Assembly (NCBI GenBank): GCA_039921685.1
Contig: JBDSBG010000005.1
Coordinates: 260-64,259 of the forward strand
Source: Ferruginibacter sp.
GTDB taxonomy: Bacteria > Bacteroidota > Bacteroidia > Chitinophagales > Chitinophagaceae
DNA: 64,000 nucleotides
Direction: 5' to 3'
Below are positions 28,480 to 34,375 of this stretch, one piece after another (within the stretch, counting starts at the first letter, position 1; every line of letters begins with the position of its first letter). Both the position numbers and the translations under genes were made by a program. The notes beneath the pieces were generated by a model. That model did no database searches. It had not been told where the DNA came from and was given only the letters and a program-made list of their open reading frames with translations.

Positions 28480-28998
28480 TTATTTTTTTAGAACCTCTTT
28501 GGCAAGCAGGATCAAAGATTCTTTGCGTTGAAACCCAGTGATCTTCTTTATCAATTTACCATCAACATCAATGAAAAGTAAGGTTGGAGTGCTGTTCATG
28601 TTATATGCCGCTTCTAAGTTTTTACCTGCAACGGAGTCAACATTTACTTTGGCATTAATGAAATTTTCATTGAAAAGAATTCCTACAGCAGGGTCAGGAA
28701 AAACATCTTTTTCCATTTTTTTGCACAAAGAGCAATAATTGGCATAAGTCACCACAAACATTGGTTTATTCTCCTGCCTTGCCTGCTTTGCTAACACGGC
28801 TGAATCATAATTAGAAAATCTTACTCCATCCTTACTGGTAAAATCCAATTCCCTTGAGGGAAGTAGTCCGCATGAATGTAAAGAGAGCACGATTGTCAAC
28901 GAGATGAATAGAGAGAGGGCCGTGCAATTCTTTTTTGAATGAAGCATATTTATTTGTTTGTCCCTGTCACAGGATGTTAATTGCTTTATGATAACCAT
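28480..28998 (-). CDS. Thioredoxin-family lipoprotein
   Basis: YCSLCKKME CxxC motif, TPTLLFID cis-Pro loop, lipobox LHSC; the true start may be 28947. Confidence 0.8.
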   Translation of the reverse strand: MVIIKQLTSCDRDKQINMLHSKKNCTALSLFISLTIVLSLHSCGLLPSRELDFTSKDGVRFSNYDSAVLAKQARQENKPMFVVTYANYCSLCKKMEKDVFPDPAVGILFNENFINAKVNVDSVAGKNLEAAYNMNSTPTLLFIDVDGKLIKKITGFQRKESLILLAKEVLKK

Positions 28999-29304
28999 GC
29001 AAACTAAACCAATAAAACTATTATACTCCTTGGTTCGTGTAAAGTAAACTTAATGCAATGATCCTTCTTGCCAATTCTTTACAGAATTTCCTGGATCAAA
29101 TATTTAAATTTCATATCCAGTGGTTTCGAAACATTGATCATGTTTTGAATCAATTTGTAAGCTTAGACGCATGGTTGAGGCCCATTCAAATCAGCAAAAG
29201 TAGAACCACTTTTGTCTTGTCCGTTTCTGACATCTCATTGTCTTTCCTGCCGATCACGACCGATATAGATTTGCATTCTTAACAATCAAATAAAATATAG
29301 AAAA

Positions 29305-29601
29305 ATGAAAACAATTTTATTCGCCATCCAGGCATTATTCATCATTGCCTTGCTGCCAGTTTGCGCCGTGCTGGAATTGAACCACGGAACCAGGACAACG
29401 GTTCAACTGGAAGCCCCGCAACAAACTGTTGAAATTATGGAGAACCCAGGGCTGGACCTGGATGCTTCAATTATTTCTTATCCCATCACTGCAATCAGTT
29501 TCAGGCAAGGAACTGTGAAACCGAAAAAAAAATCTTCTGATAAATGTTGCAGTTGCAAAGATTGTGCATGTGGCAACAGTTGTAAATGCGCCGAGTTCTA
29601 A
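29305..29601 (+). CDS. Small signal-anchored protein with metallothionein-like C-terminal Cys cluster
   Basis: Hydrophobic N-terminus MKTILFAIQALFIIALLPVCAVL; C-terminal CCSCKDCACGNSCKC; AT-rich Bacteroidota-type leader before the ATG. Confidence 0.7.
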   Translation: MKTILFAIQALFIIALLPVCAVLELNHGTRTTVQLEAPQQTVEIMENPGLDLDASIISYPITAISFRQGTVKPKKKSSDKCCSCKDCACGNSCKCAEF

Positions 29602-29658: not shown

Positions 29659-30861
29659 ATGTATTACATGAAAAAAATAATCTCATTCATCTCAACGGGC
29701 CTTTTGTTTTTATTATTAACAAGCTGCTTCAACGCATGTACACCAATTCGCAACCTTAGCAATCAGCCGGTACCATATAAAGGAAACAATGTCTTCAAGC
29801 CGCAGGTTCCCACTCATGAAACTGGGAAGAAAAATGTTTTTATTGTTGCGGATACTAAACTCACTGAGCTTTTCGATATGCTTGCTCCCTTTTATTTATT
29901 CAATCAAACAGGTAAAGCTAATGTGTATATAATTGCAAAATCGAAAAGCCCCATCCTTATAAAAAAGGATCTTTACCTGCTGCCGCAAATTACTTTCGGG
30001 GAAGCCGATTCAATGTTGTTGCGGGCAGACGTTATCGTTATCCCCGCATTGTCGGCAAGGGGTGCGCAGCAGGACCCGGTGATCATCTCCTGGATACAAG
30101 ATCATTTCACTCCTGAAACCCGCATCCTGTCAATCTGCGATGGTGCATCTACCGCCGCCGCGACAGGATTATATGATGGTAAACTATTGACCTGCCACGC
30201 TTCAGATTTTAAAGGCATAAAACCAGGCTTCTCAAAACCTTTATGGGTGCAAAATATTGCTGTTACAAAAGATGGCAACCTCTTTAGTACAGCCGGCGTT
30301 TCCAATGCTGTTGAAGGAAGCCTCACTGTAATCAATGAATTATTTGGAAAGGCTACCATGAGTGCAGCCGCTGAAGATATTCATTATCCGCACGCAGAGC
30401 TAACAGTAAATCATAACAGTATTCCAATCAGCGGCAACAGCAAAATGAGGATCCTGAAGAAAGTGATGTTTCACAAAAACAGGAAAATTGATGTTCTGCT
30501 CGCAAATGGAATTAATGAATTCACATTAGCAAGTGTATTAGACACGTATGGGCGCAGTTTTCCATTCTCACTAAACACTGTTCCGATGCCTGGCATTGCT
30601 AACGACTCTATCGTGCATACCAAATACGGTTTAACCCTGCTATGTACCGCGGATCAGAATTATGCAAAGGCTGATGAATTACATGTTCTTTCCAGCATCC
30701 CCCTTACAAAGGAAGAAGTAGGTTATTTTAATAATGCCACCGTAATAAGTTATGATGATCGTTCAGCTCAATATCCCATAGAGATATGCCTTAACAGGAT
30801 ATCAAAACTGTACGGGCATAAGTTTAAAAATGTAGTAAAACTTATGTTGGATTATAACTAA
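29659..30861 (+). CDS. DJ-1/PfpI-family lipoprotein with two DJ-1-like halves
   Basis: Lipobox LLTSC; DVIVIP, SICDGA nucleophile elbow, TAGVSNAVE; degenerate second half. Confidence 0.75.
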   Translation: MYYMKKIISFISTGLLFLLLTSCFNACTPIRNLSNQPVPYKGNNVFKPQVPTHETGKKNVFIVADTKLTELFDMLAPFYLFNQTGKANVYIIAKSKSPILIKKDLYLLPQITFGEADSMLLRADVIVIPALSARGAQQDPVIISWIQDHFTPETRILSICDGASTAAATGLYDGKLLTCHASDFKGIKPGFSKPLWVQNIAVTKDGNLFSTAGVSNAVEGSLTVINELFGKATMSAAAEDIHYPHAELTVNHNSIPISGNSKMRILKKVMFHKNRKIDVLLANGINEFTLASVLDTYGRSFPFSLNTVPMPGIANDSIVHTKYGLTLLCTADQNYAKADELHVLSSIPLTKEEVGYFNNATVISYDDRSAQYPIEICLNRISKLYGHKFKNVVKLMLDYN

Positions 30862-30898: not shown

Positions 30899-31282
30899 AT
30901 GTACGCAGCAATTATTGGAGTCGTATCCGGCATTGTAAGTATAATTACAATTGCCCTGTTAAGGTTGGATAAACCAATTATGTATGGACTCATACTTTCA
31001 GGTATAGGATTTCTTTATGTAGGTTTTACCTGGACAGACTTGCAATCTCTTATCACTAACTGCATCCAGGCACTCGTTTTCGTATTCCTCGCTTATTTAG
31101 GAGTTAAGAAGAATTTATATTTTTTAATCGGGGGTTATTTTTTACACGGACTTTGGGATATGGTGTACGATCTGTTATTTCTGCCGGGATTAATTCCACC
31201 GCATTACGATTGGTTTTGCCTTACGATTGATTTTACAATGGGGTTGTATTTATTTCTTGTTAGAAAGTCCCTCAAAATTTAA
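30899..31282 (+). CDS. Small multi-pass membrane protein (DUF6010-like)
   Basis: Four hydrophobic helices with YVGF, LHGLWD and PPHYDWFC motifs. Confidence 0.6.
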   Translation: MYAAIIGVVSGIVSIITIALLRLDKPIMYGLILSGIGFLYVGFTWTDLQSLITNCIQALVFVFLAYLGVKKNLYFLIGGYFLHGLWDMVYDLLFLPGLIPPHYDWFCLTIDFTMGLYLFLVRKSLKI

Positions 31283-31297
31283 AGAAAACAAAAGTAT

Positions 31298-31870
31298 ATG
31301 CCGCCGATTATAATGCTCATCAAAAATATGGTCTGCCTTCGCTGTATGCTCACGGTTGAAAATATTTTTCGCAACGAATCAATCGATTACCAGGCGATTA
31401 GCCTTGGGGAAGTACGCCTGGAGCAGGTCTCTCCAGAACAGAAAGCCCGGTTATCAAAAAGCCTTGAAAATGTTGGGTTTGAGTTAATAGATAACCGCGG
31501 TAGCGCACTTATTGAAAAAATAAAACAGCTAATTATTAAACGTGCCCGCAATGATGCAAATGAAGAAGATAGTAAAACTAAATTATCAAATTATCTTTCT
31601 GCAAATGTTAATCATGAATACAGCTACCTCAGTAGTCTTTTTTCTTCCGTAGAAGGAAGGACAATTGAAAATTATTTTATAGAACAAAGAATTGAAAAGG
31701 CAAAAGAATTGCTTGTTTACGGGCAAATGACATTATCACAAATAGCTTTTGATCTTGAATATAGCAGCACAGCTCATCTCTCCGCCCAGTTTAAAAAGGT
31801 TACAGGTTTAACGCCATCTTTCTTTAAAGAATTAAGAACAGTAAAGCGTAGATTCCTGGATAATGTTTGA
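31298..31870 (+). CDS. AraC-family regulator with N-terminal CxxC (HMA-like) metal-sensing domain
   Basis: IKNMVCLRC N-terminus; C-terminal IEKAKELL..TLSQIAFDLEYSSTAHLSAQFKKVTGLTPS. Confidence 0.9.
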   Translation: MPPIIMLIKNMVCLRCMLTVENIFRNESIDYQAISLGEVRLEQVSPEQKARLSKSLENVGFELIDNRGSALIEKIKQLIIKRARNDANEEDSKTKLSNYLSANVNHEYSYLSSLFSSVEGRTIENYFIEQRIEKAKELLVYGQMTLSQIAFDLEYSSTAHLSAQFKKVTGLTPSFFKELRTVKRRFLDNV

Positions 31871-32043: not shown

Positions 32044-32169
32044 ATGAAATCAGTAACAACAACAAACAAAGCAATCGAAACAGCAAACAATGTAAAATGC
32101 AGCAATCCAACATGTACCTGCGTTGATTGTAGATGTGGTTCTACATGTACCTGTGCAAATTGCAGGTAA
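32044..32169 (+). CDS. Metallothionein-like peptide, copy 1 (41 aa, 8 Cys)
   Basis: MKSVTTTNKAIETANNVKCSNPTCTCVDCRCGSTCTCANCR; own -7 promoter box, A-rich leader and downstream terminator; not in the supplied ORF track. Confidence 0.85.
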   Translation: MKSVTTTNKAIETANNVKCSNPTCTCVDCRCGSTCTCANCR

Positions 32170-32415: not shown

Positions 32416-32541
32416 ATGAAATCAGTAACAACAACAAACAAAGCAATCGAATCAGCAAGCAATGTAAAATGCAGCAATCCAACCTGCACCTGCGTTGATT
32501 GTAAATGTGGTTCTACATGTACCTGTGCAAATTGCAGGTAA
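32416..32541 (+). CDS. Metallothionein-like peptide, copy 2 (41 aa, 8 Cys)
   Basis: MKSVTTTNKAIESASNVKCSNPTCTCVDCKCGSTCTCANCR; three conservative substitutions versus copy 1, all Cys retained. Confidence 0.85.
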   Translation: MKSVTTTNKAIESASNVKCSNPTCTCVDCKCGSTCTCANCR

Positions 32542-32587: not shown

Positions 32588-32702
32588 ACTCTTAGAACAT
32601 CGCTGGTTTAGCTTGTCCTTTTTTGACATCAGGTTGTCTTTTAACCGCTATCCTGCAAACTTATCTTCGCATAAGAAATGATTAAACCAAGCAACAAAAA
32701 AA

Positions 32703-33128
32703 ATGATCATGAAAAAATATATAATCTTACTGATGATTTATCTACTGGCAGTTGTAAGTGGCTTCGCCCAGTCAAATAGTTCATCCAGCCGAATAAAAGG
32801 CATCTATTGGTCGCCAAAGAAAGACGCAAAAATTGAAATCTATGAAAAAGGAGGCAAGTATTTCGGCAAAACCATTTGGATAGCAACGCCTGGCAAAGAC
32901 AAAAATAATCCGGTAGAAACATTAAGACAAAGAGACTTGTTGGGTTTAAACCTGCTTGCTGGTTTTACATTCAACGATGAGGTATATTCCGGTGGTGAGG
33001 TGTATGACCCAGGCAACGGGAAAACTTATGATTGTAAAATGTCCTTAAATGGTGATCAGCTCAAAGTGAGGGGGTATATAGGTATTTCGCTTTTCGGGCG
33101 TACAGAATATTTCCAAAGAATAAAATAA
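32703..33128 (+). CDS. DUF2147-family secreted protein
   Basis: Signal peptide; YFGKTIW, DKNNPV, GEVYDPGNGKTY, LKVRGYIGISLFGRT motifs. Confidence 0.85.
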   Translation: MIMKKYIILLMIYLLAVVSGFAQSNSSSSRIKGIYWSPKKDAKIEIYEKGGKYFGKTIWIATPGKDKNNPVETLRQRDLLGLNLLAGFTFNDEVYSGGEVYDPGNGKTYDCKMSLNGDQLKVRGYIGISLFGRTEYFQRIK

Positions 33129-33151: not shown

Positions 33152-33373
33152 ATGAACAGTTTGATCGGGATCTTCAAAACAGATGTGCAAAATAAAACAC
33201 AGGCACGTTTAATAACACGCCTTCTCAAAGCGGGTTTATTTAACATAAAAATAAATTTCGACCTTGATGACTGCGATAAAATTTTGAGGGTAGAGGGACT
33301 CAACGAGTTATACTCACAGGAAATCATAAACGATTTGGGAAAGTTGGGATTCAAGTGTGAAGTACTGAATTGA
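33152..33373 (+). CDS. Small HMA-like (ferredoxin-fold) protein
   Basis: IFKTDV...INFDLDDCDKILRVEG...LGFKCEVL, a recurrent Bacteroidota small-protein pattern. Confidence 0.6.
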   Translation: MNSLIGIFKTDVQNKTQARLITRLLKAGLFNIKINFDLDDCDKILRVEGLNELYSQEIINDLGKLGFKCEVLN

Positions 33374-33460: not shown

Positions 33461-34375
33461 ATGCAAACAGTAGCTTTTATTATTCCGCCCCATGTTGAGT
33501 TGCTCGACCTTGCTGGTCCCGTCCAGGTTTTTACTGAGGCGAAATTTTATGGGTTTGAAGTTGATATCAGGTTTTATCAATTCAACGATTCACCTGTTAG
33601 TACTGCCGGGCTAGGTTTTGGTGAAATATTAAATTATGCTGAAGCAAAACTAAAAGAGGGAGACTTTGTTTTTATCCCCGGGATGGATTTTGAATATGTG
33701 AACAGCATTTCATTCCGGGCAGAAACAGCATTTTTCAAATGGCTAAAAGAATGTTCTGGTAAACACGTTACAGTTTGCTCAATTTGTAATGGGGCATTTG
33801 CTTTAGGAATGGCAGGTTTGCTTAAAGATACTGAATGCACTACGCATTGGAGAAGAGTAAAAGAATTACAAACCCAATTTCCAACTGCTAAGGTGGTTGC
33901 CGATATCCTTTACATAAAGAGTAATAATGTTTATACCAGTGCAGGCATAAGTGCGGGTATCGACCTGGCACTTGCCATCCTGGAGGACTTAAAAGGCCCA
34001 TTATTCACTCATAAAGTGGCAAGAGGGTTGGTTGTTTATCACCGTAGAAGTGGCCGACACAACCAGCAAAGCATTTACCTGGATTATAGAAATCACATCA
34101 ACCCACAGGTACACGAAGTGCAGGACTACCTTATTGATAATCTCTCGGGAGAAAATGATATTGAAACACTGGCTTCACTGGTGAATATGAGTGCAAGAAA
34201 CCTCAGCAGGGTTTTCAAAGAAAAAACGGGATCAACGATACTAGAATACCTCACACTGTTACGAAAAGAATATGCCAGTACCATGCTAAACAATCCTGAA
34301 TACACAATCGAATACATAGCATCTCAATGTGGTTTTAAAACCGCCCGGCAATTGCAGCGGATACTTAAGAAATAA
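33461..34375 (+). CDS. GlxA-family regulator (DJ-1 domain plus AraC HTH)
   Basis: LLDLAGPVQVF, SICNGAF, TTHW, TSAGISAGIDLAL; AraC C-terminus MSARNLSRVFK..IASQCGF. Confidence 0.92.
   Translation: MQTVAFIIPPHVELLDLAGPVQVFTEAKFYGFEVDIRFYQFNDSPVSTAGLGFGEILNYAEAKLKEGDFVFIPGMDFEYVNSISFRAETAFFKWLKECSGKHVTVCSICNGAFALGMAGLLKDTECTTHWRRVKELQTQFPTAKVVADILYIKSNNVYTSAGISAGIDLALAILEDLKGPLFTHKVARGLVVYHRRSGRHNQQSIYLDYRNHINPQVHEVQDYLIDNLSGENDIETLASLVNMSARNLSRVFKEKTGSTILEYLTLLRKEYASTMLNNPEYTIEYIASQCGFKTARQLQRILKK

Follow-up and report, generated by a model that had tools for sequence, protein, structure and literature searches.

The stretch of DNA considered here (henceforth the window, by which its whole length of 64,000 nucleotides is meant) derives from a soil Ferruginibacter sp. 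(assembly GCA_039921685.1, contig JBDSBG010000005.1, positions 260 to 64,259 of the forward strand) and contains on its plus strand a small gene for a protein of 98 residues, in which a hydrophobic N-terminal helix is connected by a long linker to a cysteine-rich tail resembling a metallothionein. The open reading frame (ORF) starts with ATG and reads MKTILFAIQALFIIALLPVCAVLELNHGT...KPKKKSSDKCCSCKDCACGNSCKCAEF; because of the relatives recovered by phmmer and profile searches and of the predominance of changes at third codon positions (see below), it is a real gene, whose parts are as follows.

29305..29601 (stop codon included), plus strand: gene of the 98-residue protein, predicted to be membrane-anchored and metallothionein-like (ORF list, homologues, codon-position changes)
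29314..29373, plus strand: predicted transmembrane helix, residues 4-23, with the family-invariant F6, A7, Q9 and P18 (hydropathy, alignments, AlphaFold helix 2-26)
29374..29385, plus strand: juxtamembrane motif E24-L-N26-H27, (E/D)-x-N-H in the long forms (alignments)
29386..29544, plus strand: disordered linker, residues 28-80 (predicted local distance difference test, pLDDT, below 50)
29545..29598, plus strand: Cys-cluster tail, residues 81-98, CCSCKDCACGNSCKCAEF (six invariant Cys and a near-invariant Gly in ten tails; homology to free peptides)

Residues 4-23 have a mean Kyte-Doolittle hydropathy of 2.78 (2.1-2.8 across the family), and AlphaFold, run with the family alignment, predicts with confidence nothing but a helix spanning residues 2-26 (pLDDT 81-85), the remainder staying below 50-56; the architecture proposed in the first-pass annotation, namely a hydrophobic N-terminal segment followed by a linker of about 55 residues, is thus upheld. 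The model fits a membrane helix followed by a disordered linker and by a metal-free thionein that would fold only on its metal. The cysteines are found at positions 81, 82, 84, 87, 89, 93 and 95, in addition to C20 inside the helix; in the linker, residues 56-66 (IISYPITAISF) form a short hydrophobic patch and K72 and K74-K76 a lysine cluster, and both the patch and the KKK run are conserved among the long forms.

The tail, CSCKDCACGNSCKC, carries the pattern C.C..C.C...C.C, which occurs exactly three times in a six-frame regular-expression scan of the whole 4.7-Mb assembly, all within 3.3 kb: once in the tail itself and once in each of two ORFs of 41 residues, both located behind a repeat that we call operator A (see below).

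32044..32169, plus strand: gene of a free metallothionein-like peptide of 41 residues, copy 1, behind operator A
32416..32541, plus strand: gene of a free metallothionein-like peptide of 41 residues, copy 2, behind operator A

The motif shared by the tail and these two peptides, already remarked upon at first pass, reflects homology and not chance, as indicated by the BLASTP match of the 98-residue protein to one of the free peptides (E 2e-5 over 22 residues) and by the hhalign comparison of a profile of ten tails with a profile of 12 peptides (98% probability, E 2.8e-13). The alignment of the tails gives the consensus C-x-C-x2-C-x-C-G-x2-C-x-C-x-(D/E)-(F/L), in which six cysteines are invariant and one glycine is nearly so among ten tails only 25-59% identical to one another; where present, the cluster itself thus appears to be under clear purifying selection. 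Small, with seven cysteines in its last 18 residues, arranged in C-x-C and C-x-x-C motifs, and few aromatic residues, the tail answers to the operational description of a metallothionein; the homology of its Cys module places the protein in the local peptide family, whereas its architecture does not. Among the related loci collected for comparison (L-numbered contigs from metagenomes, metagenome-assembled genomes and genomes), L027 encodes at 58-429 a tailed member (P0009) with 27 extra residues past the Cys cluster, GNRKSITISSEHVVMRDAVQPSKTFKK, and the (D/E)-(F/L) C-terminus is therefore not obligatory.

An exhaustive phmmer search of 1.84 billion representatives retrieved eight relatives of 83-123 residues (E 1.8e-16 to 2.9e-6), to which a profile search added five further members; a word-index search of proteins, whether with the full-length query or with residues 59-98, returned nothing but the query itself, no match was found in Pfam (E up to 0.1) or NCBIfam (E up to 1), and the PDB sequence search gave nothing meaningful. 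The family is a rare one, present in Ferruginibacter (among others in F. paludis CECT 8366, a cultured type strain) and elsewhere in the Chitinophagaceae, and was found by six-frame searches in seven of 301 sampled Chitinophagaceae genomes. Its conserved part is the membrane helix and not the Cys tail, a point that had been missed at first pass; indeed, the alignments show M1, K2, F6, A7, Q9 and P18 to be invariant and to be followed by (E/D)-x-N-H (in some tail-less relatives R, Q or Y takes the place of H27), and the 98-residue protein fits the family form MKKxVFAxQVF...P...ExNH. Over the first 27 codons of 11 loci, 788 changes fall at third positions against 475 and 227 at the others, and the invariant residues are encoded by differing codons; selection on the N-terminus therefore acts at the protein level, and conservation of the DNA or RNA as such is ruled out by the dominance of synonymous changes.

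The full tail is present in ten members; in P0007 it is internally truncated, in P0006 the linker motif is kept with no cysteines, and no frameshifted remnant of a tail is found in the DNA that follows either of them. Most of the long-form homologues thus keep the tail with its six invariant cysteines, and the concern, voiced when the gene was first described, that homologues might lack it has not been borne out. At least 14 shorter relatives (62-93 residues), however, share the helix without any Cys module; they come from F. paludis, from three further species of the window's genus and from genera outside it, and the tailed form is found only in the window's genome among 37 species representatives of that genus. 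The Cys tail is therefore best regarded as an add-on to an older membrane protein. In the variable linker, the tailed proteins share a hydrophobic patch, y-P-x-x-A-x-A-F, and a lysine cluster, and these common motifs point to a single fusion event followed by divergence to 28-50% identity. A simple read-through fusion of neighbouring genes is ruled out by the observation that, where free-peptide and tail-less family genes are adjacent, the peptide comes first and the membrane protein second, in the reverse of the fusion order. Many tail-less members (L029-L032, L034-L038) end in a short hydrophobic stretch (LFLTDLLHF, LSFLLFS, HLIIFPS) that is the positional match of the internal y-P-x-x-A-x-A-F patch of the tailed forms; on the basis of this match, the ancestral protein may have consisted of helix, linker and short hydrophobic C-terminal motif, the lysine cluster and the Cys module having been appended later.

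Upstream of the gene lie a direct repeat, named operator B, and a promoter box; a second copy of the repeat and the gene of a candidate regulator are found further along the same strand.

29217..29243, plus strand: operator B, direct repeat TTGTCC...TTGTCT, 21 bp from start to start, core TGTCCGTTTCTGACATCTCATTGTC at 29218-29242 (conserved upstream of family genes)
29266..29273, plus strand: Bacteroidota-type -7 promoter box TAGATTTG (TAnnTTTG), read from the sequence
32614..32638, plus strand: second operator B site, upstream of the DUF2147 gene (32703-33128), from the genome scan
33461..34375, plus strand: gene of a DJ-1-AraC (FtrA/GlxA-like) regulator, candidate binder of operator B (Pfam DJ-1_PfpI and HTH_18)

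The sequence TAnnTTTG is the -7 consensus of Bacteroidota, and the box TAnnTTTGCAT aligns in all 11 homologous upstream regions. The same alignment gives for operator B the consensus TTGTCCGTTTnTGACAT-N5-TGTCC, that is, an AraC-type direct repeat, TTGTC(C/T), with a spacing of 21 bp (also written TTGTCC-N15-TTGTC, or TGTCCGTTTnTGACA-N6-TGTC), which ends about 20 bp upstream of the -7 box and overlaps the -33 region of the promoter. Operator B is found before every family gene examined in these loci, at a fixed distance of 60-63 nt from the ATG (62 nt for the window copy), and also precedes genes for DUF6010, a protein of 116 residues, an esterase-like lipoprotein, the DJ-1 lipoprotein and the DJ-1-AraC regulator. 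A more divergent paralogue encoded in the window's own genome (contig C60, 9118-9264, minus strand, corresponding to L033 6119-6265; 66 residues, MKKLRFAIHVVLLMAAFPVLFIVGVTHH...) has neither a Cys tail nor a recognisable operator B; its -7 box and A-rich leader are similar. In front of the free peptide genes stands instead operator A, CCCAAAATTnTAtAAC...CCCAAAG-N4-TGTAACA, likewise a 21-bp repeat, with the exception of one peptide gene of L022, which has operator B; the use of separate operators by the membrane-protein gene and by the peptide genes had also been overlooked at first pass. Allowing up to two mismatches, the window's genome contains only the two operator B sites, at 29218-29242 and 32614-32638; F. 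paludis has five, all within 20 kb, three other genomes have one or two, and in three genomes the operator is confined to the island. As far as can be judged from these sequences, operator B is the element defining a second regulon of the Chitinophagaceae metal islands, apart from that of the free-peptide operator.

As to the protein that recognizes it, the DJ-1-AraC regulator of the window matches the NCBIfam model FtrA with E 3.4e-47, a score below that model's cut-off. Genome G138 has a single operator B in its 5 Mb, in front of a family gene that is followed directly by a DJ-1-AraC gene (L038; G138:C260, 4349-5698), and the four HMA-AraC genes of this genome all lie on other contigs; this arrangement suggests that the DJ-1-AraC regulator binds operator B and regulates its own synthesis, and, from gene position only, it is most probably the operator B binder.

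As the first-pass annotation had it, the gene for the 98-residue protein heads a same-strand run leading to an AraC-type regulator and the peptide genes; the gaps that follow are of 57, 37 and 15 nt, and no terminator-like site is found in the run before 32189, i.e., until past the first peptide gene.

29659..30861, plus strand: second cistron, DJ-1/PfpI-family lipoprotein of 400 residues, lipobox LLTSC, nucleophile-elbow SICDGA (Pfam PF01965, E 7.9e-12)
30899..31282, plus strand: third cistron, DUF6010 membrane protein (Pfam PF19473; syntenic)
31298..31870, plus strand: fourth cistron, AraC-family regulator with an N-terminal M-V-C-x-R-C (HMA-like) domain (Pfam HTH_18 and HTH_AraC; syntenic)

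The order of the operon recurs in L022, L023, L025/L026 and L027, at times with an extra secreted protein of 116 residues, and in L024 the family gene is followed directly by DUF6010; the family gene is always the first cistron. The tail-less relatives head units of varied composition: OEP, HlyD and RND pump genes and then an HMA lipoprotein in F. paludis, an HMA lipoprotein in G001, DUF2147 in G010 and G281, the DJ-1 lipoprotein in L032 and the DJ-1-AraC regulator in G138. The F. paludis context gives no evidence of metal specificity, since the pump is not clearly of the CzcA or CusA type. The DJ-1/PfpI lipoprotein, syntenic in L022, L023, L025, L026 and L032, keeps the nucleophile-elbow cysteine and is matched best by the profile for the sensor domain of FtrA-type regulators (E 1.4e-11); together with the lipobox, this suggests an exported copy of the cytoplasmic domain of the DJ-1-AraC regulator of the island. 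DUF6010 co-occurs with the membrane-protein family across genomes (five of seven, against 21 of 301; P = 2e-5), being missing from G138 and G153 and present in 16 genomes without the family. Its homologues in the window, L022, L024, L031 and L032 share the block GYFLHG(x)WD...P(G/D)LIPP(H/Q)YD(W/L)FC(L/M)(T/S)IDF, in which His, Asp and Cys are possible metal ligands; a literature search found no paper on DUF6010.

The island of the window further comprises a second AraC regulator of the HMA-like kind, an HMA-MauE protein, DUF3347, a multicopper oxidase that has a heavy-metal-binding domain, and a P1B ATPase of copper type, which scores 566.9 bits with TIGR01511 (cut-off 397). No maturase-type gene is present anywhere in the islands, which rules out the idea that the ORF encodes the precursor of a ribosomally synthesized and post-translationally modified peptide. 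Between the DUF2147 and DJ-1-AraC genes lies an ORF of 73 residues (window 33152-33373, plus strand; MNSLIGIFKTDVQNKTQARLITRLL...DKILRVEG...), a relative of which stands directly behind the operator B site of L024 (4672-4830); it probably represents one more small gene of the operator B regulon that annotation has missed. A secreted protein of 115-125 residues also recurs (L025 3074-3424, L023 646-993, L027 432-785, L031 2692-3045), consisting of a signal peptide followed by ...EQYCQ(V/L)IATPRL(L/F)SNKVTIDIDFGEEKSF..., without a match in Pfam or NCBIfam; its gene often comes directly after the family gene and, in L018, lies behind an operator B of its own. In F. paludis CECT 8366 the island (L030 and L040; NZ_JAUFQJ010000001.1, about 226-249 kb) contains two tail-less family genes, the RND pump, HMA lipoprotein, DJ-1 lipoprotein, DUF2147, DUF6010, an HMA-AraC regulator, a Cys peptide of 38 residues, the DJ-1-AraC regulator and the five operator B sites; being cultured, this strain offers a ready experimental system for the family, for operator B and for the DJ-1-AraC regulator.

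Taken together, the data lead us to favour, tentatively and with somewhat less than even confidence, the view that the first cistron of the operon encodes a periplasm-facing, membrane-tethered metallothionein-like protein. In a small Ferruginibacter-related clade, a module of six or seven cysteines would have been fused C-terminally to a single-pass membrane protein through a disordered linker of about 55 residues. The operon would be switched on by the DJ-1-AraC activator acting on operator B; the helix would insert with its N-terminus inside and its C-terminus outside, leaving the thiolate cluster at the end of a flexible tether on the periplasmic side of the inner membrane, where it could capture soft metal ions and either buffer them or pass them to envelope proteins expressed with it, the exported DJ-1-type and DUF6010 proteins being induced at the same time. 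The metal captured would most likely be Cu(I), given the CopA-type ATPase and the multicopper oxidase in the same island.

Several observations weigh against this view. The specificity for Cu(I) is suggested by neighbouring genes only, and the core function of the family does not need the tail, since this is lost or truncated in two members and absent in at least 14. No curated metallothionein model (Pfam Metallothio_*, PF02069) matches at significance; only one of the ten tails, scanned singly, reaches Metallothio_6, at E 0.022 and thus below threshold. The sole PDB chain resembling the tail profile does speak for the view, being a metallothionein, 1qjl, if at a non-significant E of 0.098. 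The charge bias on which the orientation depends is modest, the counts of K and R alone being almost balanced across the helix flanks in several members, and the free peptides have no export signal and are taken to act in the cytoplasm, from which it may be argued that a reducing compartment is where the module functions. Thiol clusters, moreover, are prone to oxidation in the periplasm of an aerobe, and no dedicated reductase is conserved in the locus. A divergently transcribed lipoprotein of thioredoxin fold (28480-28998; Pfam Thioredoxin_2, CSLC site) had been put forward at first pass as a possible partner keeping the cluster reduced; operator B points away from its gene, and a tblastn search (E up to 1) of 23 related loci, 220 kb in all, brought up no thioredoxin-like gene, so that a role as a dedicated reductant is not supported. 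A general reductant of the envelope may still play a part.

As to topology, the positive-inside rule is well established; the N-flank of the helix reads MKK, MKT or MKN and, with few exceptions, the span is followed by an acidic residue. For 16 of 18 members the difference in net charge speaks for an N-terminus in the cytoplasm. The products of the co-transcribed genes, moreover, include lipoproteins and secreted proteins, which was counted in favour of an exported tail. The orientation with the N-terminus inside and the tail in the periplasm therefore seems to us fairly probable. Nor is the helix expected to be removed: no conserved A-x-A-type cleavage site or lipobox is found across the family, the residues after P18 vary (VCA, VYV, ILV, AYV, TLV and ALL among others) and at position 20 most members have Y, L or F in place of the cysteine, so that a cleaved signal peptide and a lipoprotein were both rejected; this, and the conservation of the helix at the protein level, make it probably an uncleaved membrane anchor. 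A second membrane span at residues 56-66 was also considered and rejected, since almost all members have a 19-residue hydropathy of only 0.3-1.5 there; the patch has neither the length nor the apolar character needed to cross the membrane, and a hand sum on the Hessa scale is strongly positive.

The main rival, a serious one although we judge it rather unlikely, turns the protein around: with the N-terminus outside and the C-terminus inside, it would be a tethered Cu(I) buffer or chaperone facing the cytoplasm, trapping metal on the inner side of the membrane and delivering it to the CopA-type ATPase or the HMA-like AraC sensor. The homologous free peptides, being without a signal sequence, would make the cytoplasm the normal site of the module; lysines (K72, K74-K76) precede the tail, and the whole C-terminal part is richer in K and R than the N-flank of three residues; the minimal unit of G138, consisting of the membrane protein and the DJ-1-AraC regulator, would be in keeping with a regulator that touches a cytoplasmic tail; and there is a precedent in CupA, an N-terminally anchored chaperone handing copper to CopA (PMC7558416). 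However, the invariant K2, the frequent K3 and the acidic residue past the span form the classic N-in pattern in 16 of the 18 members, and the outward movement of two lysines against the membrane potential would be unfavourable. The lysine cluster, for its part, is separated from the span by some 50 residues and could not direct insertion at that distance, and the partners in the operon are exported.

Still less probable, in our estimate, is that the function resides in the conserved helix, acting in the manner of MgrB or AcrZ as a modulator or accessory subunit of a transporter, of a sensor or of DUF6010, and that the Cys tail is a lineage-specific appendage for sensing or tuning, and not a metal sink. 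The distribution of the family lends itself to such a reading: the helix, with F6, A7, Q9 and P18, is the only part conserved family-wide, the tails vary, the Cys module is missing from or decayed in the members listed above, and the gene is constantly the first cistron of operator B units whose cargo varies (RND pump, HMA lipoprotein, DUF2147, DJ-1-AraC), the statistical association with DUF6010 adding a possible partner. Yet no one partner is common to all loci, and the six invariant cysteines and the glycine, where a tail exists, indicate selection on the cluster; moreover, a role of the helix overlaps with that of a tethered metallothionein and does not exclude it.

That the tail is a metal-free, disulfide-knotted mini-domain outside the cytoplasm, with a structural or redox-sensing role or as a sacrificial thiol buffer, appears very improbable: exported Cys-rich domains are usually oxidised and the favoured topology does place the C-terminus outside, but both the C-x-C and C-x-x-C spacing with glycine and the kinship with cytoplasmic peptides are what metal-thiolate clusters typically show, the weak resemblances found in databases are all to metallothioneins, and the neighbouring genes handle metals. 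Hardly credible at all is a regulatory upstream reading frame tuning the downstream genes in the manner of SecM, MifM or VemP, with no functional product, as its constant first position, signal-like N-terminus and variable C-terminus might suggest, since there is no conserved C-terminal arrest motif, the distance to the next gene is anything between 11 and more than 100 nt, searches revealed neither an RNA structure nor an Rfam family (the Rfam search gave one chance match only, to a small nucleolar RNA, E 0.033) and the Cys tail is under clear purifying selection; the idea of a cysteine-sensing leader peptide is ruled out by the tail-less members that head the same operons.

Metallothioneins are treated as soluble, cytosolic proteins, and if the tail of the tethered protein does face the periplasm, the protein would be an unusual find for metallobiology, and one would have to ask how its thiols persist there. 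A literature search found no natural membrane-anchored bacterial metallothionein described; engineers have had to fuse metallothioneins artificially to membrane anchors for metal binding at the bacterial surface, where such anchored proteins do function (PMC10133563), and, if the proposal is correct, a natural and conserved thionein-anchor fusion would mean that evolution found the engineers' solution. A bolder version of it, which we hold to be doubtful, would see here the first natural extracytoplasmic metallothionein, in which a cytoplasmic thionein module has been placed on small membrane proteins heading every unit of a Chitinophagaceae-specific metal regulon controlled by DJ-1-AraC, the helix docking to DUF6010, to the DJ-1 lipoprotein or to the RND pump, and Cu(I) being handed off in the periplasm. 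What is new here is the homology of tail and peptides, the previously undescribed membrane-protein family, operator B and its proposed link to the DJ-1-AraC regulator; in F. paludis, experiments can be directed at the unannotated protein family, at the islands' second operator and at its candidate regulator.

Among known systems, the closest to the tail are the free Cys-rich peptides of 37-42 residues of the Chitinophagaceae, which have in common with it the core C-x-C-x2-C-x-C-G-x2-C-x-C, the island and the metal-related neighbours; they differ in having eight invariant cysteines and the ending C-x-N-C-K/R, in place of the six and the (D/E)-(F/L) of the tail, and in being without a membrane anchor, the 98-residue protein in turn possessing a helix and a linker and lacking the terminal N-C-K/R. 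Eukaryotic metallothioneins with C-x-C-G-x-x-C-x-C blocks, such as that of sea urchin (1qjl) and the Neurospora-type fungal copper-thioneins, resemble the tail in their short Cys-x-Cys clusters and glycine; unlike the anchored protein, the eukaryotic proteins are soluble and cytosolic, and the likeness may be convergent. As small single-span proteins of fewer than 100 residues, induced together with their targets by transcription factors, MgrB and AcrZ come to mind, the former starting with MKK and having periplasmic cysteines, the latter being under AraC-family activators and binding an RND pump; they have, however, no sequence similarity to the 98-residue protein and no thionein module.

Two copper proteins offer parallels of function, though in outline only and without any common fold or sequence. 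CupA of Streptococcus pneumoniae is a membrane-anchored Cu(I) chaperone, encoded in a copper-resistance operon, that hands copper to CopA on the cytoplasmic side (PMC7558416); the likeness lies in the N-terminal single-helix anchor that holds a copper-binding module at the cytoplasmic membrane, the difference in the folded, cupredoxin-like domain with a binuclear site, as against the thionein cluster of the 98-residue protein, with which CupA has no sequence similarity. Indeed, the AlphaFold model shows no folded domain past the helix, and the PDB sequence search gave no match to a cupredoxin-like domain. Csp1 of methanotrophs is exported and stores many Cu(I) ions on cysteine thiolates (PMC7558416), and it thereby sets a precedent for Cu(I)-thiolate chemistry outside the cytoplasm; Csp1, however, is a soluble, tetrameric four-helix bundle, pre-folded and exported by the twin-arginine (Tat) route, and not a short disordered tail on a membrane anchor.

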